A DNA stretch of 63,010 nucleotides, filler included. It is 3 parts of 3 records of this genome, joined end to end, with 100 filler letters (N's around TTAATTAATTAA, not from the genome) between each part and the next. Parts side by side here need not be neighbours in the genome. Positions count along the whole stretch, not along the records: positions 49,052 to 63,010 come from SRR31156797_2787; 2 more parts are not named here. One strand, given 5' to 3'. The position numbers were made by a program, and so were the translations under genes. Positions 24,815 through 60,044 of this stretch are shown one piece after another. How positions within the stretch are numbered: position 1 is the stretch's first letter; each line of letters begins with the position of its first letter. A model generated the notes under the pieces. It saw only the letters and a list, made by a program, of their open reading frames with translations. It ran no database searches and was not told the DNA's origin.

Positions 24815-24914
24815 NNNNNNNNNNNNNNNNNNNNNNNNNNNNNNNNNNNNNNNNNNNNTTAATTAATTAANNNNNNNNNNNNNNNNNNNNNNNNNNNNNN
24901 NNNNNNNNNNNNNN
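24815..24914. other. Artificial contig-joining spacer
   Basis: 44 N, TTAATTAATTAA (stops in all six frames), 44 N; base composition changes abruptly across it. Confidence 0.98.
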
Positions 24915-24915
24915 G

Positions 24916-45979: not shown

Positions 45980-46018
45980 ACCGGTCTTGTGAGATTAATT
46001 CTTTAGCGCCCGCGGCTT

Positions 46019-47482
46019 ATGTCAAGGGTGTGCCCAATGAAAAATACATGGTCGTTTGAAACAAAAACCTGGGCGTTCATTGCAGCCGTCTCGCTTCTCA
46101 AGGTCATCTACGCCTCCGGACTGGATCTCATGCCGGATGAGGCGTACTATTTTCTGTGGAGCCGGAAGCTTGCCTTCTCCTATTTCGATCATCCGCCGAT
46201 GATCGCCTATGTGCTCGCCTTGCCGGATCCACTGTCTCACAACCATGCCTTTAATGTGCGTCTGGCCACGGTCCTGCTCTCGGCCCTGACCTCGGTGTAT
46301 GCCTTTTTGCTGGCACGTGAACTGTATAACAGCCAAATCGGTTTTTACTATGTGCTGTTGAGCAGCGTGACCCTGTTGTTTACGGCAGGCTCCCTCATCG
46401 CGACGCCGGACACCCCGATGATTTTTTTCCTGACGGCGGCATGTTACTATTTTTACCTTGCCGTAAAACGCAATTCCACGACTTTCTGGGTCGTTGCAGG
46501 AGCGCTGATGGGCTTTGCCCTCCTTTCCAAATATACAAGCGTCCTTGTCTACGGGTCCTTTTTCCTCTATCTGGTGCTGCTTCAGGAAAACCGAAAATGG
46601 TTCACCCGCTTCCAGCCCTATCTGGCTTTTGTGGTTTCATGGATCATTTTTCTCCCGGTTATCCTTTGGAACGCCGCTCACAATTGGATCTCCTTTTGTT
46701 TCCAGTTCAATCACGGGTTTGGCGGATCTTTCCCCAACTGGCTGAACTTCTTTGATTATTTGGGCGGCCAGGCGGCCATTGCGGGCCCCGTTCTGTTTGT
46801 GCTGTTCCTGATGGCCATGGTTGCCGTTGTGCTTGGATGGAAAACCGCGACCCGCGAGGATAAGTTCCTCTGGTGTCTGGCAAGTGTGGTCTTCGGTTTC
46901 TTTCTGGTCTCCGCGCTTCAGAAAAAAGTTGAAGCCAACTGGCCCGCTTTTGCCTATGTTCCCGGTATTTTGCTGGTGATCCGTTATTACGAACGGATAT
47001 TGAAACATGCAACATGGGGCAAAAAACTCTGGCGCGCCAATTGGGGCTTATGCGTGACGGTTTTGCTCCTCTTGCTAACCCATATCTATGTGCCGTTCAT
47101 CCCGATCCATAAGGATCGCACCGATGAATTCTTCGGCTGGGGGCAACTGGGCGCAGAAGCGGCCCGACTGGCCGCGGAGCATCCGGATTTTTCCCTGGCG
47201 GCGAACCGTCATCAGTACGCCGGTGAACTGGCGGTTTATTCGGGCCTGCCGGTGACGTGCCTGAACATTGCCGGTCGAGCCAATCAATTCGATCTCTGGC
47301 AGGAGCAAACCGGTTTGCAGGGGAAAAATTTTCTGCTTTTTGATGGATGGCCGGAACCGAAGCAGGAGATTGTCCAGGCATTCGAACGCGTGGAGCCGGT
47401 CGAAAATATCCAAATTTTCCGGCGGAATAAAAAAATACGCACATTCCATGTATTTCGCGCCTATCATTACCGGGGGAAGTAA
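46019..47482 (+). CDS. GT-C glycosyltransferase (GT39/ArnT/PMT-like)
   Basis: DEAYY..WS...SYFDHPPM, TPD.P, LSKY, P...WN...W.SF.FQ and ANW; many transmembrane segments. Confidence 0.9.
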   Translation: MSRVCPMKNTWSFETKTWAFIAAVSLLKVIYASGLDLMPDEAYYFLWSRKLAFSYFDHPPMIAYVLALPDPLSHNHAFNVRLATVLLSALTSVYAFLLARELYNSQIGFYYVLLSSVTLLFTAGSLIATPDTPMIFFLTAACYYFYLAVKRNSTTFWVVAGALMGFALLSKYTSVLVYGSFFLYLVLLQENRKWFTRFQPYLAFVVSWIIFLPVILWNAAHNWISFCFQFNHGFGGSFPNWLNFFDYLGGQAAIAGPVLFVLFLMAMVAVVLGWKTATREDKFLWCLASVVFGFFLVSALQKKVEANWPAFAYVPGILLVIRYYERILKHATWGKKLWRANWGLCVTVLLLLLTHIYVPFIPIHKDRTDEFFGWGQLGAEAARLAAEHPDFSLAANRHQYAGELAVYSGLPVTCLNIAGRANQFDLWQEQTGLQGKNFLLFDGWPEPKQEIVQAFERVEPVENIQIFRRNKKIRTFHVFRAYHYRGK

Positions 47483-47495
47483 CAAATGGAAGTTC

Positions 47496-48803
47496 CTATC
47501 GCTTTTTTTGTGTGCTCAGAAGTTGCCGGGTGATGTTCTCTTTTGCGCCGGCCCTTTCCACCGCCGGGGAACGCTGTTTGTGGGATCGACGGTTGCAGGG
47601 AAGGTGCGCGAGCGTCAGCAGCAGGCGTTTATGGTAGAAGAGGAGGTGGCGCAGGTAATAGCGAAACGCATCGCCCGATGAGCGGATACCGCGGTATACG
47701 GCCAGGCTGCCGAGAAAGGGGAAGAGGGTCTTTACCAAAAAATAGGCAACCCTGTTTCCAAATCCCTCCCGGTTTCCCATGGCGATCCGAAAATTCCACA
47801 CCCAACCCCTTGCATTGAACAATTTTGGCTCTTCCAATAGCGCCAGCAAGTCTCGAAGGGAGGCGTCGAACTTCCGCTGACGGCGGTCTTTCGGCTCGGC
47901 CCTAAGCGCCTGGTGCACCGGCGGAAGACGCAGCATGGACGAAAGAAAGTGGGTGAGGAGAGAGAACACCTGTTCAAGACCGAAATCCCGGATCATCACT
48001 TCCATTTCATCCTGGTCCAGCCGCCCGCTAAAAAAAACCAGAAGCCCCGCAATATCCAAGTAGTGCTTCAGGGAAGCATCGAACTGGTGCTGAACCAGGT
48101 GGGCCACATTGAACAGAATCTCCATTTCGAGGCACAAAACCGGGCAATCAAAACCGTCCACCTCGATCCATTCCTTGCGATTCCAGGCCGTTTGCATGAA
48201 CCTTGCGTGGTCTCGAATAACCTCATAGGGCGTGAAATGGAATTCCAAAATAGCGCCCGAAGCCGCCTGATTCATGGTCACGTGATAGATGAACGGAGGG
48301 TTTTTGCCTGAGAAGTCCAATGTATAACCCATATCCCGGCCGATCTTGACCATCCGGGGCAAGTCTCTTCGGGAGCAAAAAATATCCAGATCGGAGAGGG
48401 TCCGGAGGGCCGGGTCCTTGTATATCCGGCCGATCAGGGCCGGACCTTTCAAAACAATAACCGGTATGCCCTCTTTTCGGCATCGGTCAAGGAGTCTTTT
48501 CAACGTATGGAAATACGCCTCGTTTCGGAGGAAATTCCCGAAATAGGCCCGCTCCCACCTCTGTTTCAGCCACCCGGGAATCGGTGCTGGAAGCCGGTTG
48601 CTTGAGAGCATCCAGTAAAGAAGCGGTTCGAGGTTGTGAAAATGGGCCAGGTCGCCCACGGCCTTCCAGTCCGCCTGGTTTTCAAAGGGGATTTCCATCG
48701 GCAGAACCCGGTCTTGAAAGAGCCAGGACCCGGCGGCGGCCAAAAGCCAATCGAGTGCCCGGGTGCGTATGTGCAGGGTTGTGTTCGGCATGGTGGGGAC
48801 CAT
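47496..48803 (-). CDS. Nucleotidyltransferase family protein (NTP_transf_5-like)
   Basis: VLKGPAL...Y.....R..SDLD, LEFH and H...H....LK.YLDI. Confidence 0.85.
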   Translation of the reverse strand: MVPTMPNTTLHIRTRALDWLLAAAGSWLFQDRVLPMEIPFENQADWKAVGDLAHFHNLEPLLYWMLSSNRLPAPIPGWLKQRWERAYFGNFLRNEAYFHTLKRLLDRCRKEGIPVIVLKGPALIGRIYKDPALRTLSDLDIFCSRRDLPRMVKIGRDMGYTLDFSGKNPPFIYHVTMNQAASGAILEFHFTPYEVIRDHARFMQTAWNRKEWIEVDGFDCPVLCLEMEILFNVAHLVQHQFDASLKHYLDIAGLLVFFSGRLDQDEMEVMIRDFGLEQVFSLLTHFLSSMLRLPPVHQALRAEPKDRRQRKFDASLRDLLALLEEPKLFNARGWVWNFRIAMGNREGFGNRVAYFLVKTLFPFLGSLAVYRGIRSSGDAFRYYLRHLLFYHKRLLLTLAHLPCNRRSHKQRSPAVERAGAKENITRQLLSTQKKR

Positions 48804-48825
48804 TTCCCTTCGGGATACTCTTTAA

Positions 48826-48951
48826 CTAACCCAGCAAAAACAGCTCTTTTAAAAGTTTTCGCATGGATTGCTGGCCGTTTGTTCGCAGCCTGAAAATCTC
48901 CACCTCATTACAGATCCGGAGAACCGAATCAAACAGGCGTTCATCATCCGT
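48826..48951 (-). CDS. 3' end of a gene cut by the contig edge
   Basis: Open frame TDDERLFDSVLRICNEVEIFRLRTNGQQSMRKLLKELFLLG-stop, ending 22 nt before the nucleotidyltransferase start. Confidence 0.6.
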   Translation of the reverse strand, partial: TDDERLFDSVLRICNEVEIFRLRTNGQQSMRKLLKELFLLG

Positions 48952-49051
48952 NNNNNNNNNNNNNNNNNNNNNNNNNNNNNNNNNNNNNNNNNNNNTTAAT
49001 TAATTAANNNNNNNNNNNNNNNNNNNNNNNNNNNNNNNNNNNNNNNNNNNN
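48952..49051. other. Artificial contig-joining spacer
   Basis: Same N44-TTAATTAATTAA-N44 layout as the first spacer. Confidence 0.98.
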
Positions 49052-50103
49052 CCTTTCACATGTTTCTTTTTCTCTTTCAGTTTTGCCATCAGGGGATTGG
49101 AAAGATCCGACCAGATTTCACTGAAAGGACGATCCAGGATATTGCCGAAACTGTAGTGCCGCCAGAACTGGTCCGCATGAACCGCGCCGTCCCAACTGAC
49201 GCACCCGATGCCCAGGCCCGAACTGTTCCCTTCATTCATCCTGAGCAACTGTAATACATCTTCCGCCCTGGGGTCCTTTTCTTTCAGCATGCGGAGGTAC
49301 ACAAAAGGTCCGTCCGCATGGTTATCCACGGTGAGCACTTCTTTGGGCTTTCCCCGTTCATGAAGGTCACGGGTGCGGTCCATGATCAGGTCCACCACTT
49401 TTCGGGTCTGGGCATGCTCCAGGTCTTCTTCCACCATGTTTGATCCGCGCCCCGCATACACCAGGTGGTAAAAACAGATTCGCGGGATCTCCATTTCCTC
49501 CACAAGATCAAAGATGCGAGGAACCTCCACTGCATTCATTCGATTGATGGTAAACCGCAGCCCCACCTTAAGCCCTACCGCCTGGCAGTTGCGGATACCT
49601 TCCATGGCTGCTTTAAATGCTCCTTTTTTGCCGCGAAAGCGGTCGTTCACTTCTTCCATGCCGTCGAGGCTGACACCCACGTAGGAAAGCCCCACTTTTT
49701 TTAATTCTTGGGCCTTTTGGGGTGTGATGAGGGTACCGTTGGTGGAAATAACCGCGCGCATCCCTTTGGATACCGCATAGTTGGCCAGGTCCACCAGATC
49801 GGGCCGCATGAGCGGTTCGCCTCCTGAAAACAGGATTACCGGAGAACCGAAGTCCGCCAGATCATCGATGAGACGCAGTCCCTGCTTATGGGTGAGTTCC
49901 CCTATGGATTTTTCTTCAACGGCCCTGGCGTAGCAATGAACGCATTTGAGGTTACAGGCTTTGGTGATGTTCCACACCACCACGGGCCGCTTGTCTTGGG
50001 AAAACTGAAGGAGATGGGATGGGAGATCCTTGGAGCGCCTTCCGTACCTGAGCGCATCGGAGGGTTCCACCGTTCCGCAATAAAGTTTTGATATACCGAT
50101 CAT
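49052..50103 (-). CDS. ahbC: 12,18-didecarboxysiroheme deacetylase (alternative heme biosynthesis radical SAM), 3' end cut
   Basis: MIGISKLYCGTVEPSDALRYG...VVVWN, CNLKCVHC, SGGEP, FYHLVYAGRG and LTVDNHADG; ATG at 50103. Confidence 0.9.
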
Positions 50104-50139
50104 TTTTATATTGATTCCAATGGTTTTTATTGTCGCGCC

Positions 50140-50220
50140 GTGGGGGCAACCCCTTGCGGGTTGCCCTGTTTTGGGTGTTTGCAACGTATGATCAGGGCAG
50201 GCACGGGGGCCTGCCCCTAC
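50140..50220. repeat. Inverted pair of REP-like palindromes (REPIN-like)
   Basis: GTGG-GGGCAACCC-cttgc-GGGTTGCCC on the plus strand and GTAG-GGGCAGGC-ccccgt-GCCTGCCC on the minus strand, facing each other between pyk and ahbC. Confidence 0.75.
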
Positions 50221-50318
50221 AAAAAAATGCCATACACGTCAGACCATATCAAAGAACCCCCCCCAACTGCAAGTTTTTCGAAGATTGCGGTTTTTTTTCA
50301 TTCCAAAATCCGCAATGG

Positions 50319-51734
50319 TTATTCCTCTCCCACCACATGCAGCTTCATCATGTTGGTTTTCCCCTGTTTTTTGAGGGGGAATCCCGCAACGATGACGATA
50401 CGATCATTTTTTCGAACCAGCCTTTTTTTCCGAAGCTGTTCTTCCATCGCCTTGATCATGATGTCCGAATTGTCCATGAGGGGCAGCAAAAGAGCCTTTA
50501 CGCCCCAACTGAGGGCAAGGGACCGTTGAACGGCTTCGGTGGGTGTCAAGGCGATAATGGGAACCGACGGCCTGTATTTTGAAATGAGCCGGGCCGTGAA
50601 ACCGGACTGGGAAAAGGGCGTAATGGCGTTAAGCCCAAGGTTTTCGGCCGCCATGCAGGCGGCCTCTGAAATGGTGTCGGAAAAATTGAACGTTTTACGT
50701 GAGAAAGGCGCGGTTGCAGGAAAGTTCTTTTCCGTGACCCTGGCGATTCGCGCCATCATTTTTACGGACTCTACCGGGTATTTTCCAACGGATGTTTCTC
50801 CGCTCAGCATAATGGCATCGGTACCGTCCACAATGGCATTGGCAACGTCGGATGCCTCTGCGCGGGTGGGCAGGGGGTGTTCCGTCATGGACTCCAGCAT
50901 CTGGGTAGCGGTAATGACCAGCTTTCGGTTTTCGTTCGCCAGAGCGATCATTTTTTTCTGTGCCACCGGCACTTTCTCAGGTGAAAGCTCAACGCCCAGG
51001 TCTCCCCGGGCCACCATGATGCCCTCACATGCATCAAGGATTTCTTCCAGTTTGTCTAGTGCTTGCGGCTTTTCAATTTTGGCAATGACCGGAATGTTGA
51101 CGCCTTTTTTCTTGAGAATACGTTTCAGTATCTGAACATCCCGGGCGCTTCTGACAAAAGAGGCTGCCACAAAATCGATCCCCATACCCAGTCCGAAATC
51201 CAGATCTTTTTTATCTTTTTCCGTGACGGCGGGGATACCGGTTGTGATTCCGGGCAGATTGATCCCCTTGTGTTCGCCGATCACTCCCCCGGTAACCACT
51301 TGGCAGAAAAGATCCGTCTTATTTTTGTTTCGCACCTTTAATTCAATTAAACCATCGTCCATGAGGATCTTATCCCCCGGCTGAAGGTCCTTGGTAATAC
51401 CACCATAGGTTGTTGAAATGATACCGGGTTCGCCTTTTAAGGCACGGGTGGTGATGGTGAAGGGGTCATGGGCCTTTACCCGCAGGATGCCTCCTTTGAT
51501 CAGGCCCGTTCGGATCTTGGGGCCCTGGAGGTCCAGCATGATGGCAATGGGTCGTTTAAGGGACCTTGAGAGGGATTTTACCGAATCCGCGACTTTTTTA
51601 TGGTCTGTATGGGTGCCGTGTGAAAAATTGAGCCTGGCCACGTTCATGCCTGCCAGAATGAGTTCTTTCAGAACTTTTCGCGAACTGGTTGCAGGTCCAA
51701 TGGTGCAGACGATTTTCGTTCTGGGCGGGATCAT
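50319..51734 (-). CDS. pyk: Pyruvate kinase
   Basis: TKIVCTIGPA, RLNFSHG, DLQGPKIR, AKIE, MVARGDLGVE, ATQMLESM and MLSGET. Confidence 0.97.
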   Translation of the reverse strand: MIPPRTKIVCTIGPATSSRKVLKELILAGMNVARLNFSHGTHTDHKKVADSVKSLSRSLKRPIAIMLDLQGPKIRTGLIKGGILRVKAHDPFTITTRALKGEPGIISTTYGGITKDLQPGDKILMDDGLIELKVRNKNKTDLFCQVVTGGVIGEHKGINLPGITTGIPAVTEKDKKDLDFGLGMGIDFVAASFVRSARDVQILKRILKKKGVNIPVIAKIEKPQALDKLEEILDACEGIMVARGDLGVELSPEKVPVAQKKMIALANENRKLVITATQMLESMTEHPLPTRAEASDVANAIVDGTDAIMLSGETSVGKYPVESVKMMARIARVTEKNFPATAPFSRKTFNFSDTISEAACMAAENLGLNAITPFSQSGFTARLISKYRPSVPIIALTPTEAVQRSLALSWGVKALLLPLMDNSDIMIKAMEEQLRKKRLVRKNDRIVIVAGFPLKKQGKTNMMKLHVVGEE

Positions 51735-51918
51735 CCTAAATCTCCTTTTAGATCATGAACATCTGCTCTGCCGTAAAAAATATCCGCAGTGCCCACATAG
51801 GTCAAGAACAAACAGGAGGCTTCATGGTTTTTGTTTTTTTGCTTGATGCACGAATCACTATGCTCTAAATTAATCGATTATTTTCGTTAAGTCAAAACAG
51901 TTGTGGGGAGGGAGGCGT

Positions 51919-53181
51919 ATGAAATATCGTATGAAATGGATTTTGGGTGTCCTGTTGGTGGTCAGTGTTTTTGTCATTCCGTTGTTGATGGCATCCGTTG
52001 TTTCGGCGGACAGCCTTTCGGAGGCTATTTCACAGGGGATCAGCGATGGGAAAATTACCAAAGATGCGGAACCCGGTTTCTTGGGGATTCCCGGCGCACC
52101 AAAAGTTAATTTTATACTCGGCTTTCTATGGGCCATATGGGTGGGTTGGATTTTTTCCACAGTGGGCGCATTCGGCGGTATCATGGCCGGTGTGGGACAT
52201 ATCACCATATTCGGCTTGGGGGATTATGCCAAGGGTTTTGGTAAGGGTTATCCCATGAACAAGCTGTTGACCGATTCCATCCGCGTGTCCAACCAGTGGC
52301 TTGTGGGCCTGAGCGGTTTGATTTCCAGTACTAATTATTACCGAATGGGTCGTTTGGTGGCGCCTTTGGGCATGTGCCTTGCCATTGGCGGGGTCGGGGG
52401 GTCCTGGCTTATTCCGGATCTGACGGCCGGTAAAATCAGTTTGAAGTCTTATATCGGCTACTTCGGCATCGCAGTGCTTGCACTGGGTGTAATCCTCTTC
52501 CGTGAAACGACCAAAGCCGGCCAGGCCAAGCGTAAGAAAGCCAAGGAGGCGGCCTCCGCCTTTGAAAAAGAGGCCAAGAAGGGTGGGGACAGCCAGCAGG
52601 GGGTCAAGGTGCTTCAGGGCAGCTGGACCATGATGTTCGTGGCGCTGGGAGTGGTGGTGGCCAGTGCACTCTGGGCCAACCTGGCCGGCGGCGCCAAATG
52701 GGTGGCCTACATCCTGGCCCTGGTGGGCTGGGCATTGACATTTTTCGTGGGAACCATCCGATTTACCTTTTACGGGGTGGAATTTAAATTCAAAGCCTTT
52801 ATCCCCATGCTGGGCGGTATTTTCATTGCTGCGCTGGCATCGTTTCTAGGGGTCGGCGGCGGGTTTCTGTATGTCCCCTTTCTCACATCGGTGGCGGGTT
52901 TGCCCATGTTCCTGGTGGCCGGTACCAGCGGCCTGGTGGTTCTGGTGGGCATGATCGTCTCCATCTTCAGCTATATGGTGGGAAAAGGTGTTCCGGTCCA
53001 GTGGGGTTTTATCGGTGCGGAACTGGTGGGTATTTTTATCGGCAGCATGATCGGACCCCGTACCTCCAAATATATTCCGGATATCTGGCTCAAACGGCTT
53101 TTTGTGGTGCTCGCTTTTTACGTGGGCCTCCGGTACATTACCAAAGGTTTCTTGGGCTACAGCATCGTTCCTCCCTTCTGA
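51919..53181 (+). CDS. TauE/SafE-family sulfite exporter-like membrane protein
   Basis: GWIFSTVGAFGG, LGVGGGFLYVP and VAGTS; GGAGG RBS before the ATG at 51919. Confidence 0.88.
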   Translation: MKYRMKWILGVLLVVSVFVIPLLMASVVSADSLSEAISQGISDGKITKDAEPGFLGIPGAPKVNFILGFLWAIWVGWIFSTVGAFGGIMAGVGHITIFGLGDYAKGFGKGYPMNKLLTDSIRVSNQWLVGLSGLISSTNYYRMGRLVAPLGMCLAIGGVGGSWLIPDLTAGKISLKSYIGYFGIAVLALGVILFRETTKAGQAKRKKAKEAASAFEKEAKKGGDSQQGVKVLQGSWTMMFVALGVVVASALWANLAGGAKWVAYILALVGWALTFFVGTIRFTFYGVEFKFKAFIPMLGGIFIAALASFLGVGGGFLYVPFLTSVAGLPMFLVAGTSGLVVLVGMIVSIFSYMVGKGVPVQWGFIGAELVGIFIGSMIGPRTSKYIPDIWLKRLFVVLAFYVGLRYITKGFLGYSIVPPF

Positions 53182-53200
53182 TGCACTGATCCGTTCCATT

Positions 53201-53229
53201 GCGCCCCGGCCCGGCCGGGGCGCCCTTTT
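53201..53229 (+). terminator. GC-rich hairpin with short T tail
   Basis: GCGCCCCGGC-ccg-GCCGGGGCGC followed by CCTTTT. Confidence 0.55.
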
Positions 53230-53241
53230 CGGCCTTGTCAG

Positions 53242-53748
53242 ATGGATTTTGTAACCGGTCTCATAAACGGCATCGATCAAGTGCTCATCACCCCCTACCG
53301 GTGGCCTGATAGCCCCATGGCAGGCTGGTGGCTGGGCACATCCATTTTGGCTCTGTGGTCCACACTTCTGGGCAGATTGACCATGGCCCTGGTGATGCGT
53401 GTGAATCTGCGTCACGTGCGTGATGGACTGGAAGAAACCGGCCTGCGGCACACCCAGAGTATGAATGCCCTTAAGGCGGGGGACAAAGATGCCTATAAAG
53501 CCATCAATAAACTGGCCAACGAAGCCTATGGTAAAACCTTCTTTCTGCAGGTGGCCATGGCGGCGGCAACCCTCTGGCCCATCCCCCTGGCCCTCGGCTG
53601 GTTACAATTACGCTTTTCAGAGGTCATGTTTCCCCTTCCGCTGATGAGTAACAGTGTGGGTTACGCGTTTGTCTTTATTCCTCTGTATATCCTGGTGCGG
53701 ATTCTGGTGGCAAAGGTGGTGAACCGGATGTCACGTCATATGCATTGA
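53242..53748 (+). CDS. Hypothetical membrane protein following the TauE-family gene
   Basis: Three hydrophobic segments and a GDK.AYKA.NK.ANEA.GK.FF block. Confidence 0.8.
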   Translation: MDFVTGLINGIDQVLITPYRWPDSPMAGWWLGTSILALWSTLLGRLTMALVMRVNLRHVRDGLEETGLRHTQSMNALKAGDKDAYKAINKLANEAYGKTFFLQVAMAAATLWPIPLALGWLQLRFSEVMFPLPLMSNSVGYAFVFIPLYILVRILVAKVVNRMSRHMH

Positions 53749-53852
53749 CGAAATAATCAAATTACTTTATCGTGTTATCAACTTCCGGAAATTCGCTCCC
53801 TTGACTGTTTTTCTGTAAATCGTTGTTTTGACCGTGAAAGGGGAAGCATCGA

Positions 53853-54935
53853 ATGAGCCCTGCGCTTGTGTCCCGCAGAATTGAAGTTGAAAATGTCGAG
53901 CAGGTGGTGGAAACCTTTTATCAAAAGGGTTGGACAGACGGCCTTCCCGTGGTTCCGCCCACGGAAGAAAAGGTGCTGGCATTCCTTAGCGCTGCAGGGT
54001 TACCCCCCGATGAGATCCTGGGGGCCATTCCGGAGCGGAACCGGGTTTTCACCGCTGAAAAAGTGGCCGTCAACGCCGTCATGGCCGGGTGTCTCCCTGA
54101 ATATTTTCCGGTTGTTGCAGCTGCCGTTAGGGGAATATCCCGACCGGAATTCGGTCTTCACGGTGTTTGTGCCAGCACTGCGGGGTCGGGTATCCTGATG
54201 GTGGTCAACGGTCCCGTGGCGGAGGCCTGCGGTTTGAACAGCGGCCAGAACCTCATGGGGCCCGGAAATCGTGCCAATGCCACCATCGGGAGGGCATTGA
54301 GGCTCGTCTTATACAATCTGGCGGGAAGGGAGTTCGACCGGTCAACCCTGGGGCATCCCGGGAAATATAGCTATTGTATCAGTGAGGATGAAACCGGTTC
54401 CTGGAAACCCCTCCATGTGATGAGGGGATTTCAAAAGGAGATGAGTGCCGTTACCCTTTTTGCAGCTGAAGGGCCCAACCAGGTGCAGAATCACGTGGCC
54501 CTGAAACCGGAAAATATTTTGAACACCATTTCCGATCGCATGCGGGCCCTGGGAAGCTTCAATATGGGCGGGGACTGCGAATGTGCGGTGATCATCTGCC
54601 CGGAACATTATGATGCTTTGAGTAAAGGTGGATGGACAAAGGAGGGGGTTCGGGACTTTCTGTACGAGAACGCCTGCCGGTCTTTGGCGGACCTGAAAAG
54701 GGGAGGGCTCAACGAATCGTCCCTTGAACCGGAGGATGAAGAAGAAATGGTCCGGGCCGTTTCATCACCTGATCATATTCTGCTGATCATGGCCGGAGGG
54801 GAGGCCGGCCGATTTTCGGCTTATCTGCCCGGATGGTTCAGCCGTCACATGTCAAAGGCGGTGACCGAGCCCATCGGGGTGACCTGTGTCGGGGGAACAT
54901 GAGCCGTCACCGGGGTTCCGTTGGAATCCCTTTAG
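53853..54935 (+). CDS. UGSC-associated protein (DGLPVVPPT type), probably extended through UGA to a C-terminal CVGGTU tail (360 aa; 349 aa if UGA is a stop)
   Basis: GWTDGLPVVPPT, AVMAGC.PEY and GNRANATIGRA motifs; TGA at 54900-54902 follows CVGGT and precedes a SECIS-like hairpin, AVTGVPLESL and TAG at 54933-54935. Confidence 0.75.
54912..54930 (+). promoter_or_regulatory. Putative bacterial SECIS element 1
   Basis: GGGGTTCC-GTT-GGAATCCC: 8-bp stem with one G-U, G-first loop, 17 nt between the UGA and the loop. Confidence 0.65.
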
Positions 54936-54956
54936 TTGAGAAGGAAGGAAATTATC

Positions 54957-55481
54957 ATGACCTTTACCGTGCTGGATCCTACGAATGAGCCCGTTAAAAC
55001 AACCTTTAGAAAGGCCCCACGGCCGGAAACCCTGAAAGGGCTCAGGCTCGGACTCATTGATAATGGAAAGAAGAATTCCGATTATCTTGTCAAGAAAATC
55101 GCTGAAAGATTGCGGACCCTTTACGGCCTCAGTGGAGACATTCTTGTGAAAAAGCCTTCCCCTTCACATGCCATCCCTGGGGATATGGCTCAAGCCCTTG
55201 TTGGAAAGGTCGATGTGGTGGTCGCCGGTATCGGGGATTGAGGTTCTTGCAGCTCGGGCAGTGTGCTCGATGGCATCGTCATGGAAAAACTGGGTGTCCC
55301 CGCGTCCGTGGTCTGCACGGAACCTTTTGTGAGTTCAGGGAAAGCCATGGCTGTGGCCCACGGTTTCCCCGACTATCCCTTTGCCGTCATGCCCCATCCC
55401 ATCAATGCCACAACCTATGAAATGTTGGATTCGTGGGTGGAAGATGCCCTTCCTGAAATTGCACGCTTGCTGCTTGCATGA
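54957..55481 (+). CDS. UGSC-family selenoprotein (174 aa, Sec at codon 95)
   Basis: Track ORFs 54936..55241 and 55263..55481 share a frame and are split by one TGA (55239-55241), giving AGIGD-U-GSCSSGSVLDG; AAGGAAGGA RBS before the ATG at 54957. Confidence 0.92.
55248..55275 (+). promoter_or_regulatory. Putative bacterial SECIS element 2
   Basis: TCGGGCA-GTG-TGCTCGA (55254-55270): 7-bp stem, G-first loop 19 nt after the UGA, with lower TGC/GCA pairing. Confidence 0.8.
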
Positions 55482-55556
55482 AGAGTCCGTTTCTTTCTGC
55501 AGGAACCTTTGAAATGCGACTGATTTTGTTATTGATCATTATGGAGAAGAGTTATT

Positions 55557-56615
55557 ATGTTTGAACAAGGTGTTATCAGGCCGCCCAGTGAAGCCAACAG
55601 CCTTCTGGTCCGTGTGACGAGAAACTGTCCGTGGAACCGCTGCCTGTTCTGTCCCGCCTATAAGGGAACGACTTTTTCCAGGCGGTCCGTTGCGGAAATA
55701 AAAAAAGATATCGATGAAATGGTGCAATATTATGGACCTAATGGTTCACAATTCACCACGGCGTTTTTCCAGGATGCCGATTCCATGATCCTTCCCACTG
55801 AAGAGCTTCTGGAGATCTTAAAATACCTCGGGAAGGCCTTTCCATCCTTGACCCGGATCACTTCCTATGCCCGCGCCAAAAGCCTTAAGCGGAAAAGCGT
55901 TAAATCCCTGAAAACGCTTAAAGCGGCAGGATTAACGCGGATCCATACGGGACTTGAAAGCGGGTCCGTGAAGGTTTTGAAATTGATTCAAAAAGGAGAG
56001 AGCCCCGGGGAAATGATTGAAGGGGGGCAGCGGGTCATGGCGGCCGGCATAGAGCTTTCTGAATATATCATGCCGGGTGTGGGCGGCAGGGAATTGAGCC
56101 GTGAGAATGCCCTCGGGACGGCGGATGTCTTAAACCGCATCCGCCCGGATTTTATCCGGGTTCGCACATTTGCCCTGCCGCCTGCTTCCCCCATGGAGGC
56201 CATGGCCCGGGAAGGTCGTTTTTCTCCCATGAATGAACTGGAAATCGTCGCTGAAATCCGGGATTTGATGCGCCATTTGGAGGAAATGCCGTCACATTTC
56301 CGTTGCGCGGATTTCAGCCTGAACCTGCTGATGCATGTGGATGGGTATCTGGACCGGGATCGACCCCGCATGCTTGAAGATCTGGATTCATTCCTGTCCC
56401 TTTCCGAATTGGACCAAAAGAGTTATGTTCTGCTTCAGCGATCCGGTCATTTTGGTGTGCATCCATCGGAGATGCTCAAGCATCAGGATCTAATGCGTGA
56501 GCTTCACAACAAGATTGAAGAACTGGATGGTGGTAACGGAGGCGGTTTTGACGGGTATATTCGTGCCATGATGGCCGGCCAGTTGCCTCGCCCTCAGACC
56601 GGTACTTGGACATAA
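55557..56615 (+). CDS. Radical SAM protein
   Basis: IRPPSEA.S, CPWNRCLFC (CX4CX2C variant), FFQDAD, GLESG and SEYIMPG.GG. Confidence 0.9.
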   Translation: MFEQGVIRPPSEANSLLVRVTRNCPWNRCLFCPAYKGTTFSRRSVAEIKKDIDEMVQYYGPNGSQFTTAFFQDADSMILPTEELLEILKYLGKAFPSLTRITSYARAKSLKRKSVKSLKTLKAAGLTRIHTGLESGSVKVLKLIQKGESPGEMIEGGQRVMAAGIELSEYIMPGVGGRELSRENALGTADVLNRIRPDFIRVRTFALPPASPMEAMAREGRFSPMNELEIVAEIRDLMRHLEEMPSHFRCADFSLNLLMHVDGYLDRDRPRMLEDLDSFLSLSELDQKSYVLLQRSGHFGVHPSEMLKHQDLMRELHNKIEELDGGNGGGFDGYIRAMMAGQLPRPQTGTWT

Positions 56616-56624
56616 GGAGTGTTT

Positions 56625-57365
56625 ATGGATGTTCACAAGGAAAGAATTGCAGTATTTATTGATGCGGATAATGCACCGGCAAAAAAAATTGATATGATTT
56701 TGTCTGAACTGGCAAAATATGGTGTTGTCAGTATCCGGAAGGCTTATGGAAACTGGAAGAAACCTTCCATTAAAGGCTGGGAGGATGTCCTTCATGAATA
56801 TTCCATTCAGCCGGTTCAGCAGTTTGACATTGTTAAAGGGAAGAATGCCACGGATATGGCCATGACCATTGATGTGATGGACATTCTTTATACGAAGAAT
56901 ATCGACGCCTTCTGTATTGTATCGTCGGATAGTGATTTTACGCCTCTGGTTCTAAGGGTCCTATCAGAGGGCAAATCGGTCATCGGTTTTGGTGAGCGTA
57001 AGGCACCGTCACCATTTGTCAACGCTTGTTCCCGTTTTCTGTATCTGGATGAACCCGCAAAACCTGATACCAATGGTGTGCAAGGGGTGAAACAGATGGG
57101 TAAAGCGCTTAAATCGGATACCAAACTCATGAATCTCTTGCGAAACGCCATCGATTCGGAGCAGGATGATGACGGCTGGGCCTATCTGGGACGTATCGGC
57201 GCCCATATTTCCAATCAGGCCTCCTTTGACTCCAGAAATTACGGTTACAAAAAGCTGGGTGATCTCATACGGGCAATCGATATTTTTGAAACAAAACTGG
57301 TGGGTGGCGGCCAGTTATACGTCAGGGACAAGCGAAGGGTGAAACCGACCGCCAAAACGGAATGA
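56625..57365 (+). CDS. NYN-domain protein with C-terminal OST-HTH/LOTUS domain
   Basis: IDADN, GKNATD, SSDSDF and FDSRNYGYKKL; AAGGAG RBS before the ATG at 56625. Confidence 0.92.
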   Translation: MDVHKERIAVFIDADNAPAKKIDMILSELAKYGVVSIRKAYGNWKKPSIKGWEDVLHEYSIQPVQQFDIVKGKNATDMAMTIDVMDILYTKNIDAFCIVSSDSDFTPLVLRVLSEGKSVIGFGERKAPSPFVNACSRFLYLDEPAKPDTNGVQGVKQMGKALKSDTKLMNLLRNAIDSEQDDDGWAYLGRIGAHISNQASFDSRNYGYKKLGDLIRAIDIFETKLVGGGQLYVRDKRRVKPTAKTE

Positions 57366-57383
57366 TCCTGACGGCATCGATAT

Positions 57384-58259
57384 ATGGCAGGAGTTGTATT
57401 GAATATGAAGTGTACTGAAGAAAATATGTTGCACCAGCTGAAACCGTACGAAAATCAATTACCCGATTACCATATGCACACCGCTTTGTGCAGGCACGCC
57501 AAAGGAACGGTTGCCGACTACCGGAGGGCGGCCGGTGCCCTCGGAATTCCTGAAATCTGCTTTGTGGATCACGCCCCAAATCCGGATGGGTACGATCCGA
57601 AACACCGTATGAACCTCAATGAGTTTTCCGACTATCAGGAGATGGTGGGTGCCGAGATGGACCATCAGGCGCCACATGTCCTCTTCGGCATAGAGGCGGA
57701 TTATTACAGGGGGTGTGAGACGTTCCTGGAAAAATGGCTGGAGACCCAGGATTTTGATCTTGTGCTCGGCTCGGTGCATTTTATTGAGGACTGGGGGTTT
57801 GATAACCCGGATGTGAAGCAGGTCTGGAATTCGGTGGATGTTACGGATACCTGGGCAACCTATTTTAAACTGGTAATGAAATTGGTGGATACCCGGCTTT
57901 TTGATGTGGTCAGCCACCTGGATATCCCCAAAAAATTCGGGCACCGTCCATCCCAAAAAGATCTTAAGGAGATGGTGCAGCCGGTCCTGGACCGGGTGGC
58001 GGCAGCAGGGATGGGCATGGAGTTAAATACTTCGGGGCTTCGTAAACCGGTTGGGGAAATTTATCCATCGGTCTTGATCGTAACACTAGCCCGGGAAAGG
58101 GATATCCCCATCTGTTTCGGTTCGGATGCGCACAATCCGCAAGAAGTGGGCAAAGATTTTCCCGCTGCCCTTAAGCTGGCCCGAGATGCGGGGTATACAG
58201 ACTATTTCAGGATCAAGAAACGGAAAAAAACCCTGATAACGCTTCCGGAAGTGCTTTAA
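57384..58259 (+). CDS. PHP-family histidinol-phosphatase (HisJ/HisK type); start uncertain
   Basis: DYHMHT.LC.HA.G, DHAP, GIE.D, GSVH, HLD..K, ELNTSG and GSDAH. Confidence 0.9.
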   Translation: MAGVVLNMKCTEENMLHQLKPYENQLPDYHMHTALCRHAKGTVADYRRAAGALGIPEICFVDHAPNPDGYDPKHRMNLNEFSDYQEMVGAEMDHQAPHVLFGIEADYYRGCETFLEKWLETQDFDLVLGSVHFIEDWGFDNPDVKQVWNSVDVTDTWATYFKLVMKLVDTRLFDVVSHLDIPKKFGHRPSQKDLKEMVQPVLDRVAAAGMGMELNTSGLRKPVGEIYPSVLIVTLARERDIPICFGSDAHNPQEVGKDFPAALKLARDAGYTDYFRIKKRKKTLITLPEVL

Positions 58260-58400
58260 AAACGACCGCATTACCATTGAGTTGCTCATTTACCATAGAA
58301 CCATTATTCTCGTTTATAGGGGCACCCATGGCGAGGTTTAAAGATACATCACTCGTCAGGGGGTGAGATAGGCTTTAAACTTCATAATGATGATGAGGGG

Positions 58401-58892
58401 GTGGCGATGGATCGGAAAGCATTTTGGCGCGTGTTGTCTCTGTCCGTATTTACGGTGTTGGTTTTTGCCGGATGGCAAATAACGATGGTTGAAGCTAATC
58501 AGGCTGAAGGAATGTCACCCGGTGGTACTGGAGGAAGTAAGGTAGGTTCAAGAAATCTCAATCTGATCCTGCTCAATAACCAGGGGTATAAAAAGAAACG
58601 AAAGGGGCCGGTGGAATTCACCCATAAAAAGCATGTGTACCAATACAGACTGTTCTGCTGGGATTGTCATCACGACTACAAAGATGGACAGGATGTCTGG
58701 GTGCCGTGGGGAAAGACCCAGCGATGCCGTGAATGCCACAATCCAAAGGATAAAAAACACAATAAGATCATGCTCCAGAAAGCGTTTCATTATCAATGCA
58801 AAGGGTGTCACAAGAAGCTGGCGAAACAAAAGAAGAAGACCGGCGCCTATCGAAAATGCGGGGGGTGCCATCTGAAGAAAGAGGCCAAGTAG
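58401..58892 (+). CDS. Tetraheme class III cytochrome c (c3 family), very basic
   Basis: Signal or anchor segment, VEFTHKKH, and CWDCH, CRECH, CKGCH and CGGCH. Confidence 0.92.
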   Translation: MAMDRKAFWRVLSLSVFTVLVFAGWQITMVEANQAEGMSPGGTGGSKVGSRNLNLILLNNQGYKKKRKGPVEFTHKKHVYQYRLFCWDCHHDYKDGQDVWVPWGKTQRCRECHNPKDKKHNKIMLQKAFHYQCKGCHKKLAKQKKKTGAYRKCGGCHLKKEAK

Positions 58893-59229
58893 ACTGGTTT
58901 CGGGTTATATGAACAATGATTCCAGATATATGCTAAGGAAGTGCCGTGCCACAAACAGAAACGGATTTAAAACCATGTTTTTATTTGCTGAGTCAGAGGG
59001 TTCGTATGACAACTTTTGCTTTGGTCCTGTATGGGAAACTTATGGGAAAAGATGCTGGTTGCAAACGGGATAATTTTTGTTTTTCAAGAGAAATTCGGTA
59101 GTACAGGCCATTTCAGAGCCCGATTTTTTTCAGACCAGACACCATATATTGTGGCCGTCTAATTATCGACTAAATTTCAGATATATAGTTAGTACAGGTT
59201 CACCAAGACCCAATGTGCGTTTGGATATT

Positions 59230-59612
59230 CAAACTATCTGTAAGGGCACCGAGATGGATCGAACAAGGCGCTATGGAAGGTAGATCCGTACTCACGAAAA
59301 AGCCCGCATTCTGAGTCTGATACATGAGCCTTTCATCGAGATTTCCGGTGGGGTGGACAACGCGCATGTGAGTGGTCGAGGCAACCGGTTGCATGTAGAC
59401 ATCGACACCGGCCGTTTTCAAAGGTTCAAGAATAAACGCGTCCTTTTCAGCCATCCTTGTAACAAAACGGCAATTTTTTTTTCAGTCCGGCAACAGGCGG
59501 CCAATGCCCCGAAAAACGGTGCGCCTCCTGGTGCGCGGCGGGCGGATCCTTCCCTCGCCTCTATTTCATCGATGGTCACATGGCCCATAAATACCAGATC
59601 GTACCGATTCAT
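59230..59612 (-). pseudogene. PfkB/ribokinase-family kinase remnant (frameshifted and truncated)
   Basis: GHVTID...PGGA...A N-terminus; the frame shifts near 59465 into TRMAEKD...HLGALTD and similarity ends long before the ATP-binding motifs. Confidence 0.7.
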
Positions 59613-59742
59613 TCCGGCTCCTTTTTCTCAACTCCGGCCAAACAACCGGGATTAAAAATTCTTATTATTACAAAACCCAACACAAAAAGACAGCCTTTGG
59701 TTTATCGGAATTTATGAATTTAAATACCAGCAATAAAGGGTT

Positions 59743-59952
59743 TTATTTAGCAAGCACCACGCCCCCTATGACCATGGCGACGCCTAGAACTCGCAGGGGC
59801 GTAATGGGCTGTATTTGGTATCCCAGGCAACCAAAATGGTCAAAGAGTATTGAGGTGATCATCTGGCCGGCGACCACCAGAGAAAACAGGGTTGTCGCTC
59901 CCAACCTGGGGGCAGCGATTATGGCGGATGTTACGAAAACGGCGCCCACAAT
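59743..59952 (-). pseudogene. C-terminal fragment of a DMT/YdcZ-type transporter
   Basis: GAVFV.....PRLGA.......GQ...S...DHFG..G....P....R..G; no N-terminal half is present upstream. Confidence 0.7.
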
Positions 59953-60044
59953 CTTCTTCCAAAGACCGTGGAGTTGATAACCCTTTACATTGAGCGGTAT
60001 CGTCTGACACCAAGACCCATTTACCGGAACTGCCTATTCATCTA

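Follow-up and report, generated by a model that had tools for sequence, protein, structure and literature searches.

A UGSC selenoprotein gene and its constant neighbour, very probably a second selenoprotein gene, form a conserved two-gene module

We analysed a 63,010-nt stretch of DNA (the window) in which two adjacent, co-oriented genes, here called gene 1 and gene 2, each contain an in-frame TGA near a Cys codon, followed by a short hairpin. A first, sequence-only reading had described such a pair with hairpin loops that begin with G 17 – 19 nt downstream, and this description holds: the TGAs lie at 54900-54902 and 55239-55241, and the loops, GUU and GUG, are found 17 nt (gene 1) and 19 nt (gene 2) from them. 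The hairpins themselves start 9 – 12 nt past each UGA. As that reading had also stated, calling of open reading frames (ORFs) with translation table 11 splits the pair into three + strand frames, 53853-54902 and 54936-55241, which both end at these TGAs, and 55263-55481. With TGA read as selenocysteine (Sec, U), the gene 1 product ends in C345-V-G-G-T-U350-AVTGVPLESL before a TAG, and gene 2 encodes A-G-I-G-D-U95-G-S-C98 within its product. The locus comprises the following elements, in which SECIS denotes a selenocysteine insertion sequence and HMM a hidden Markov model:

53836..53844, + strand: Shine-Dalgarno-like GAAAGGGGA before the gene 1 start, read from the sequence
53853..54935, + strand: gene 1, 360 codons, putative selenoprotein of the UGSC-partner family, stop TAG at 54933-54935 (translation with TGA read as U)
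54885..54887, + strand: codon for Cys345 of gene 1, five residues N-terminal of Sec350 (conserved motif)
54900..54902, + strand: in-frame TGA, predicted Sec350 of gene 1 (aligned with Cys in homologues)
54912..54930, + strand: SECIS-like hairpin of gene 1, 8-bp stem 54912-54919/54923-54930, loop GUU at 54920-54922
54940..54950, + strand: Shine-Dalgarno-like GAAGGAAGGAA before gene 2, read from the sequence
54957..55481, + strand: gene 2, predicted UGSC family selenoprotein of 174 residues (HMM matches), stop TGA at 55479-55481
55239..55241, + strand: in-frame TGA, predicted Sec95 of gene 2 in the motif GD-U-G-S-C (TGA kept across loci)
55254..55270, + strand: SECIS-like hairpin of gene 2, 7-bp stem 55254-55260/55264-55270, loop GUG at 55261-55263

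Folded alone, neither hairpin is more stable than shuffled sequence (z of 0.28 for gene 1 and -0.07 for gene 2), and the case for both therefore depends on their relatives; an Rfam scan of 53700-55600 at E up to 1 gave no match. Related loci were collected in four sets, namely 80 genome loci, 80 metagenome loci, a second group of 80 loci, and a third of 22 that was fetched via a short DNA pattern aimed at Bacillus loci. Some contigs overlap between sets, so that the TGA counts given below are not additive, and two rows (L155 and L186) were left out of the alignments.

By its profile matches, gene 2 is a UGSC selenoprotein, a family already known. Its scores are 177.6 bits against Pfam PF24696 (cut-off 25) and 127.4 bits, barely over the cut-off of 125, against NCBIfam NF041046, 'UGSC family (seleno)protein'; all 33 aligned homologues match PF24696. 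With ~174 residues and GD-U-G-S-C ~95 residues in, it does not differ from the rest of the family. The name 'UGSC-containing protein' goes back to Zhang and Gladyshev, who suggested a thioredoxin (Trx)-like fold and found the family among the most abundant marine selenoproteins, with 255 Sec and 21 Cys forms in GOS and no characterised member (PMC2398784). The sequence-only reading had called the family known but functionally uncharacterised, which reviews from 2022 (PMC9312934) and 2026 (PMC13188914) bear out.

The U position of gene 2 is occupied by TGA in all 145 loci in which it could be located among the window, the 80 genome loci and the 80 metagenome loci, a count that leaves out 16 loci with no or only a partial UGSC match. 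It is TGA in 72 of 73 loci of the second 80 (seven lack a UGSC match), the single TGC coming from the archaeon Natrialba (L268), and in 19 of 19 of the third set (two without a match, one partial). A Cys form, CGSC, occurs in the fusion protein P0150. Across 33 UGSC sequences D94, U95, G96, and C98 are invariant, as are D105, T121, F124, G136, H147, and P148 downstream of the TGA.

The gene 2 hairpin is also conserved. Among 112 distinct sequences, 93.6% of 784 alignment cells are paired, compared with 87.0 ± 0.5% after shuffling, and none of 500 shuffles reaches the observed value; when one strand of the stem is slid sideways as a control, pairing falls to 12.8 – 68.2%. Both sides have changed together at three pairs. 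In the loop, G23 and U24 are invariant, and the surrounding Ser codon is AGT in 112 of 112 sequences out of six possible codons. The region comes in two coupled forms, U-G-S-C-S-S-G-S-V-L-D, present in the window (residues 98-104, 55248-55259), and U-G-S-C-S-A-C-S-V-H-D. The switch from Gly/Leu to Cys/His falls on one hairpin base pair (G-U vs U-A, columns 19/29), so that at this site base pairing cannot be separated from a possible additional Cys/His ligand.

For gene 1 the TGA could instead be a true stop, the hairpin then being a terminator, an attenuator or a coupling structure, with downstream sequence conserved as RNA and gene 2 as the only selenoprotein. Two observations lend this some colour: public gene calls terminate at the TGA, and in the window the hairpin together with TTTAGTTG fits a terminator pattern. 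The fit is confined to the window, as the T-run is kept in none of 17 relatives (columns 32-36 vary). These form the window clade of 17 distinct loci (74 – 90% protein identity), every one with C-x-G-G-[TA]-U and then [AVS]-V-[TN]-G-[VI]-P-L-E. The clade's hairpin is fully paired (100% of 112 cells in 14 distinct sequences) and its bases are fixed or compensated, with one change from G-C to A-U and changes from G-U to G-C or A-U. It is nearly invariant, with one compensatory pair and a score that 35 of 500 shuffles reach, so that covariation is weak here and RNA constraint alone could conserve residues 353-358. Codons 351-352, which separate the TGA from the hairpin, vary synonymously (GCC/GCG; GTC/GTG/GTT), which argues against a stop.

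Further objections to a true stop come from beyond the window clade. Natural homologues with Cys at the Sec350 position continue in frame: P0028 and P0029 read C-S-G-D-[IV]-C-[AE]-[LI]-P-G-[LF]-Q-L-E-P, an extension comparable to that of gene 1, P0040 (locus L018) reads C-S-D-G-T-C-D-V-stop, and L046, L093, L160, L195, L243, and L259 have C-x-D-G-T-C. The 24 closest database proteins (P0004-P0027) end directly before the TGA, after C-x-G-[GDE]-x. In addition to the window clade, three groups carry a TGA near the end of the reading frame:

9 Desulfobacterales-type loci: tail C-[GD]-x-U-G-W, then TAA/TAG; hairpin with a 6-bp stem right after the stop
Bacillales metagenome-assembled genome (MAG) L190: tail C-T-G-G-G-U-Q-L-stop (C-x4-U-Q-L), sharing C-x-G-G-x-U with the window clade; hairpin with an 8-bp stem and loop GGU
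11 of 12 Bacillaceae loci, mostly cultured isolates: tail T-G-F-T-U-x-[ED]-C, then TAA/TAG/TGA; hairpin with a 7-8 bp stem

In these four separate clades a Cys thus lies five or three residues before, or three after, the TGA, and residues are conserved up to differing stops. The Desulfobacterales-type hairpins are paired in 100% of 54 cells with one both-sided pair change, seen in two near-identical sequences. The Bacillaceae hairpins are paired in 96.6% of 88 cells (20 – 46% in slid controls) and show four both-sided changes, giving a covariation score that none of 500 shuffles reaches. All ten genomes examined have a selB gene above the cut-off and a tRNA-Sec that exceeds the gathering score, five of five Desulfobacterota genomes with the closest pairs and five of five from Bacillaceae. 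Gene 1 in all likelihood encodes a selenoprotein, judging from these comparisons, and we regard a true stop at 54900-54902 as very unlikely. Where the sequence-only reading had asked for homologues with Cys or TGA at both positions, alignment yields Cys forms for gene 1 and, for gene 2, TGA with rare TGC or CGSC. Conservation persists beyond both TGAs, from D105 to P148 in gene 2 and through A-V-T-G-V-P-L-E in gene 1, whose extension recurs in P0028 and P0029. Sec is very probably encoded by both TGAs.

The tail is a property of a minority of gene 1 homologues. A census of 242 distinct gene 1 proteins with available DNA assigned a candidate Sec tail to 37 (the 11 Bacillaceae Sec-tail loci counting as 10 distinct proteins), a Cys-only tail (C-x4-C or C-x-x-C) to 13 and none to ~192. 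The calls were automatic with six rows corrected by hand (L018, L093, L243, L259, L244, and L254), and the sample is biased, as the queries were Sec-tail proteins and one of their motifs. The twelfth Bacillaceae locus, L290, also lacks a tail. On this comparison the Cys-x4-Sec tail of gene 1 is a lineage-specific addition. In Bacillaceae, protein records (Neobacillus, Mesobacillus, Bacillus; L272-L289) end at T-G-F-T; since the DNA continues through the TGA to x-[ED]-C-stop, they appear truncated by 4 – 5 residues that include the Sec and the Cys. Public entries of Bacillus pinisoli, Mesobacillus harenae, Neobacillus, and others likewise stop at the TGA, as 'hypothetical proteins' of 345-346 residues. 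In one Desulfatiglandales MAG there are two pairs of gene 1 and UGSC, on contig_4 and contig_2 (L016/L270 and L291), both with C-x4-U tails.

The two genes keep each other's company across phyla. A UGSC gene flanks gene 1 in 74 of the 80 genome loci, downstream on the same strand in 71 and upstream in three, in Desulfobacterota, Chloroflexota, Methylomirabilota, Binatia, Nitrospinota, Actinomycetota, and Pseudomonadota. In the metagenome set, where many contigs are short, a UGSC gene whose U codon could be located flanks gene 1 in 70 of 80 loci, and two more gave partial matches. No further flanking gene is conserved across clades or phyla. The spacing between gene 1 and gene 2 is 21 nt in the window; in L016, L110, L111, and others, the terminal TGA of the gene 1 frame shares bases with the UGSC ATG (ATGA), which suggests translational coupling in these relatives.

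Gene 1 is also found fused to UGSC and to other redox modules. UGSC precedes the gene 1 domain in P0150, P0274, P0278, and P0307; P0261, P0262, and P0266 have the same order with a gene call that begins just past the Sec codon, and in P0249 and P0260, which have the opposite order, the call ends just ahead of it. These fusions agree with the 'UGSC/Unknown_1 fusion' of PMC2398784, and we infer that Unknown_1 is the gene 1 family. Many ~700-residue proteins combine gene 1 with a C-terminal domain resembling low-Mr (low relative molecular mass) thioredoxin reductase (TrxR), including P0124 (58% identity to gene 1; C-A-I-C) and P0140 (C-A-T-C). A peroxiredoxin (Prx)-like domain of the AhpC/TSA redoxin type precedes gene 1 in P0285 and P0310, and P0169 has an AhpD-like segment and a Trx-like segment with C-P-V-C ahead of it. 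As gene 1 is constant and the small thiol/selenol modules are exchangeable, the pattern is that of a client enzyme with dedicated reductants. A thiol/selenol redox role for the pair fits these sequence data, and it is highly probable that both TGAs encode Sec and both proteins work together.

Read through the TGA, gene 1 has no Pfam or NCBIfam match at E up to 0.01; 59 aligned members show no consistent Pfam match at E up to 1, and a gene 1 profile finds nothing below E 0.36 among PDB sequences. The family is large, with at least 7987 homologous proteins and 7783 (E up to 0.001) or 2438 (1e-30) clusters at 50% identity, and ranges from ocean Chloroflexota to soil Bacillaceae. A protein atlas search with the Cys homologue P0028 retrieved unnamed clusters only, plus one cluster that is 41% UGSC-bearing. 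Six proteins of ~710-740 residues (P0244, P0245, P0246, P0250, P0251, and P0256) have two stretches that match the gene 1 profile and no Pfam domain, and represent either a tandem gene 1 duplication or two neighbouring genes read as one.

An AlphaFold model of gene 1 is confident (predicted local distance difference test score, pLDDT, 91.8; predicted template modelling score, pTM, 0.91) except for tail residues 345-360, which are disordered with pLDDT <50. The best Foldseek matches are class I (iron-sulfur, Fe-S) fumarate hydratases at E 2.5e-4, and a class I fumarate hydratase structure, 7xky_A, is found by VIA-align with Z 5.8. These matches would suit a heterodimeric metallo-enzyme that holds a metal or Fe-S cluster between its subunits by means of Sec95/Cys98 and Cys80/Cys175, the catalytic subunit being gene 1 and hydro-lyase-like. 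The fusion of a gene 1 domain to an aconitase-X swivel domain in P0177 and the U-x-x-C-x-x-C...H pattern of many UGSC proteins point the same way, and in formate dehydrogenase and [NiFeSe] hydrogenase Sec coordinates a metal (PMC13188914). The structural likeness is slight, however: the Foldseek match has a template modelling (TM) score of 0.27 and a root-mean-square deviation of ~16 Å, the VIA-align hits (Z ≤ 6.2) are limited to residues 206-333 (206-331 for 7xky_A), that is, to one subdomain, and no fold search exceeded TM 0.29 or Z 6.2. Because the matches are weak, we treat the two-domain, ~345-residue predicted fold as having no clear solved relative. The UGSC protein of the window lacks the third Cys and the His (SSGSVLD), and the TrxR-like, Prx-like, and AhpD/Trx-like fusions point to thiol chemistry. 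We consider a metal-binding interface unlikely.

The aligned gene 1 sequences (n = 59) share invariant C80 (within N-A-V-M-A-G-C-L-P), R140, N142, R147, and E178, and C175 is conserved in at least 90% of them. The many invariant polar residues and the larger size of gene 1 speak against reversed roles, in which UGSC would be the catalytic selenoenzyme and gene 1 a recycling or maturation partner that delivers or removes, for instance, sulfur or selenium species. UGSC is the more strictly Sec-dependent of the two, with TGA in nearly all loci, and a gene 1 fold that has no clear solved relative leaves room for such a role; yet gene 1 is the constant element that is fused to varied redox modules (UGSC, Prx-like, AhpD/Trx-like, and TrxR-like). 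On balance, reversed roles are quite improbable, slightly more so than a metal site.

The UGSC model (pLDDT 91.6) has five beta-alpha units by DSSP and places U95 between strand 87-93 and helix 96-111, so that Sec95-x-x-Cys98 is predicted to follow a beta strand and lead into a helix, like the motif of redox-active CxxC proteins. Foldseek returned flavodoxin, WrbA, TIR, and receiver domains at TM 0.36 – 0.58, with flavodoxin/WrbA-like entries at 0.4 – 0.58, which are weak matches, and no Trx-fold entry is among the matches listed. The modelled protein appears doubly wound alpha/beta, flavodoxin/Rossmann-like, rather than Trx-like as had been suggested in 2008.

We propose a model in which gene 1 and gene 2 are co-transcribed as a conserved two-gene module and each UGA would be recoded via the hairpin that begins 9 – 12 nt downstream. 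A TrxR-type flavoprotein would take electrons from NAD(P)H and hand them to UGSC at its Sec95/Cys98 pair; from there they would move on to gene 1, in the window lineage via a selenenylsulfide on a mobile C-terminal arm, Cys345-x4-Sec350. They would end at the Cys80/Cys175 site of gene 1, where a substrate would be reduced. The arm would be an auxiliary element that may accelerate or insulate this transfer, rather than the core interface. Besides the near-invariant and, in the window, terminator-like hairpin of gene 1, several observations weigh against this model. Its fold matches are weak. Most gene 1 family members have no Cys/Sec tail at all, and the arm must therefore be dispensable for the core function. 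The flanks of split pairs contain no TrxR-like gene (0 of 161 loci and 0 of 22), apart from one partial match among 80 loci; because these flanks hold no such gene, the electron donor is deduced from the fusions alone. A locus scan based on P0140 retrieved 80 ordinary TrxR loci, none of which (0/80) has gene 1 or gene 2.

As a whole, a co-transcribed two-selenoprotein module with a redox relay is probably the best explanation of the data; that the relay runs in the proposed direction is a more tentative suggestion, with the balance tipping slightly towards doubt. The sequence-only reading had proposed a two-component selenium-dependent redox system in which the small UxxC protein exchanges electrons with the Cys/Sec tail of the large one. 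The redox system is supported by the conserved pair and the redox-module fusions. The exchange at the tail is not supported in the form proposed: the ~192 of 242 gene 1 homologues without a tail still adjoin a Sec-containing UGSC, and the tail can thus not serve as a general point of contact. In a bolder and rather doubtful version of the model, the gene 1 family would supply the catalytic subunit of a widespread reductase of a new kind, dependent on the TrxR system, UGSC would be its dedicated seleno-redoxin, and the arms (C-x4-U, C-x2-U, U-x-x-C, C-x4-C, and CxxC) would be mobile shuttles convergent with that of animal TrxR.

Animal (high-Mr) TrxR has a C-terminal Gly-Cys-Sec-Gly arm. The predicted gene 1 arm is likewise a flexible Cys/Sec pair that could ferry electrons from a partner to a buried site. 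It differs in its spacing (C-x4-U vs C-U), gene 1 has no FAD/NAD(P) domain as judged by the absence of Pfam matches, and its P0124-type relatives carry a fused low-Mr TrxR-like domain in place of the arm.

Glycine reductase offers another likeness, as GrdA and GrdB are also a selenoprotein pair encoded in one operon, and the U-x-x-C(-x-x-C) motif matches UGSC. GrdA (CxxU), GrdB (UxxC), and PrdB of proline reductase carry thioredoxin-system electrons to a substrate (PMC13188914). No match to the Pfam families of Grd and Prd proteins was seen in 33 UGSC members (E up to 10) or in 59 gene 1 members (E up to 1).

Closest in layout are selenoproteins with a C-terminal tail, of which Table 1 of the 2026 review lists 'UXX-star' (NF041114/NF041211), KCU-star (NF033934), and the Cys-Cys-COOH protein SaoC (PMC13188914). 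Like gene 1, they have a Sec a few residues from the C-terminus beside a Cys or Gly and are truncated at the TGA in annotation, and some gene 1 relatives are literally U-x-x-stop (C-G-x-U-G-W-stop and C-x4-U-Q-L-stop). They differ in that the Sec of the window's gene 1 is followed by 10 residues, not two, and in the ~345-residue body, which is unrelated; the UXX-star and KCU-star HMMs do not match the gene 1 read-through product (NCBIfam, E up to 0.01). Table 1 comprises 119 selenoprotein families, all with domain accessions; no entry fits gene 1, which matches none of those that are Pfam or NCBIfam models (PMC13188914). The accessible text of a paper on Olavius symbionts lists UGSC and does not mention the neighbouring gene.

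The feature is thus real, half of it known (UGSC) and half new, an additional selenoprotein family with a C-terminal Sec arm. What was already known is the gene 2 family and its link to a second conserved domain, the fusion to 'Unknown_1' noted in 2008 (PMC2398784). The novelty, as far as checked, is that UGSC has a partner which is a selenoprotein in its own right, with Sec in several C-terminal architectures, although supplements or subscription literature may hold an earlier mention. The constant partner of UGSC would then be a selenoprotein in at least four lineages whose RefSeq-type records are truncated at the TGA. Such C-terminal Sec tails are lost silently in annotation because the truncated protein seems complete. 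The domain fusions place the pair downstream of TrxR-type and redoxin-type modules and so outline a testable pathway. Both genes and the Sec machinery are present in cultured aerobic Bacillaceae (Mesobacillus, Neobacillus, Bacillus pinisoli, and B. dakarensis), which makes genetics and 75Se labelling feasible outside uncultured sulfate reducers.

The window consists of joined contigs that differ on either side of an N run at 24816-24915, which surrounds a ttaattaattaa spacer with stops in all frames. The left stretch (1-24815) has a GC content of ~25% and, over 1-24814, 99 – 100% identity to a genome designated G001. The right stretch (24916-63010), with ~52% GC, contains both selenoprotein genes, and 46000-60000 has no counterpart in G001. 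If the two stretches came from one bin, that bin is mixed. G001 was considered as a proxy for the source genome and rejected, its similarity being confined to the left stretch; its selB and tRNA-Sec are irrelevant for the same reason, and a search of G001 relatives that found 0 of 61 was centred on G001 and is uninformative on the selenoprotein pair. No selA, selB, selD or tRNA-Sec was found among the scanned ORFs of 24916-63010.

Upstream of gene 1 on the same strand, 51901-53748 contains a 426-residue TauE/SafE-type permease, extended by a long stretch at its N-terminus, and a small, hydrophobic membrane protein of 168 residues that has no family match; neither has a counterpart in the flanks of the 80 clustered genome loci. 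A radical SAM gene lies directly downstream of the pair at 55557-56615 and, together with a HisJ gene, is shared only with L016, which among the genome loci is the closest. The NCBIfam matches of the radical SAM gene are weak and below cut-off, among them the CUAEP/CCAEP-tail radical SAM (seleno)protein (18 bits vs 500). The right stretch also carries genes of sulfate-reducer type, encoding AhbC (658.5 bits, cut-off 650) and a class III cytochrome c, and the nearest relatives of gene 1 and gene 2 are in MAGs named Desulfatiglandales and Desulfobacteraceae.

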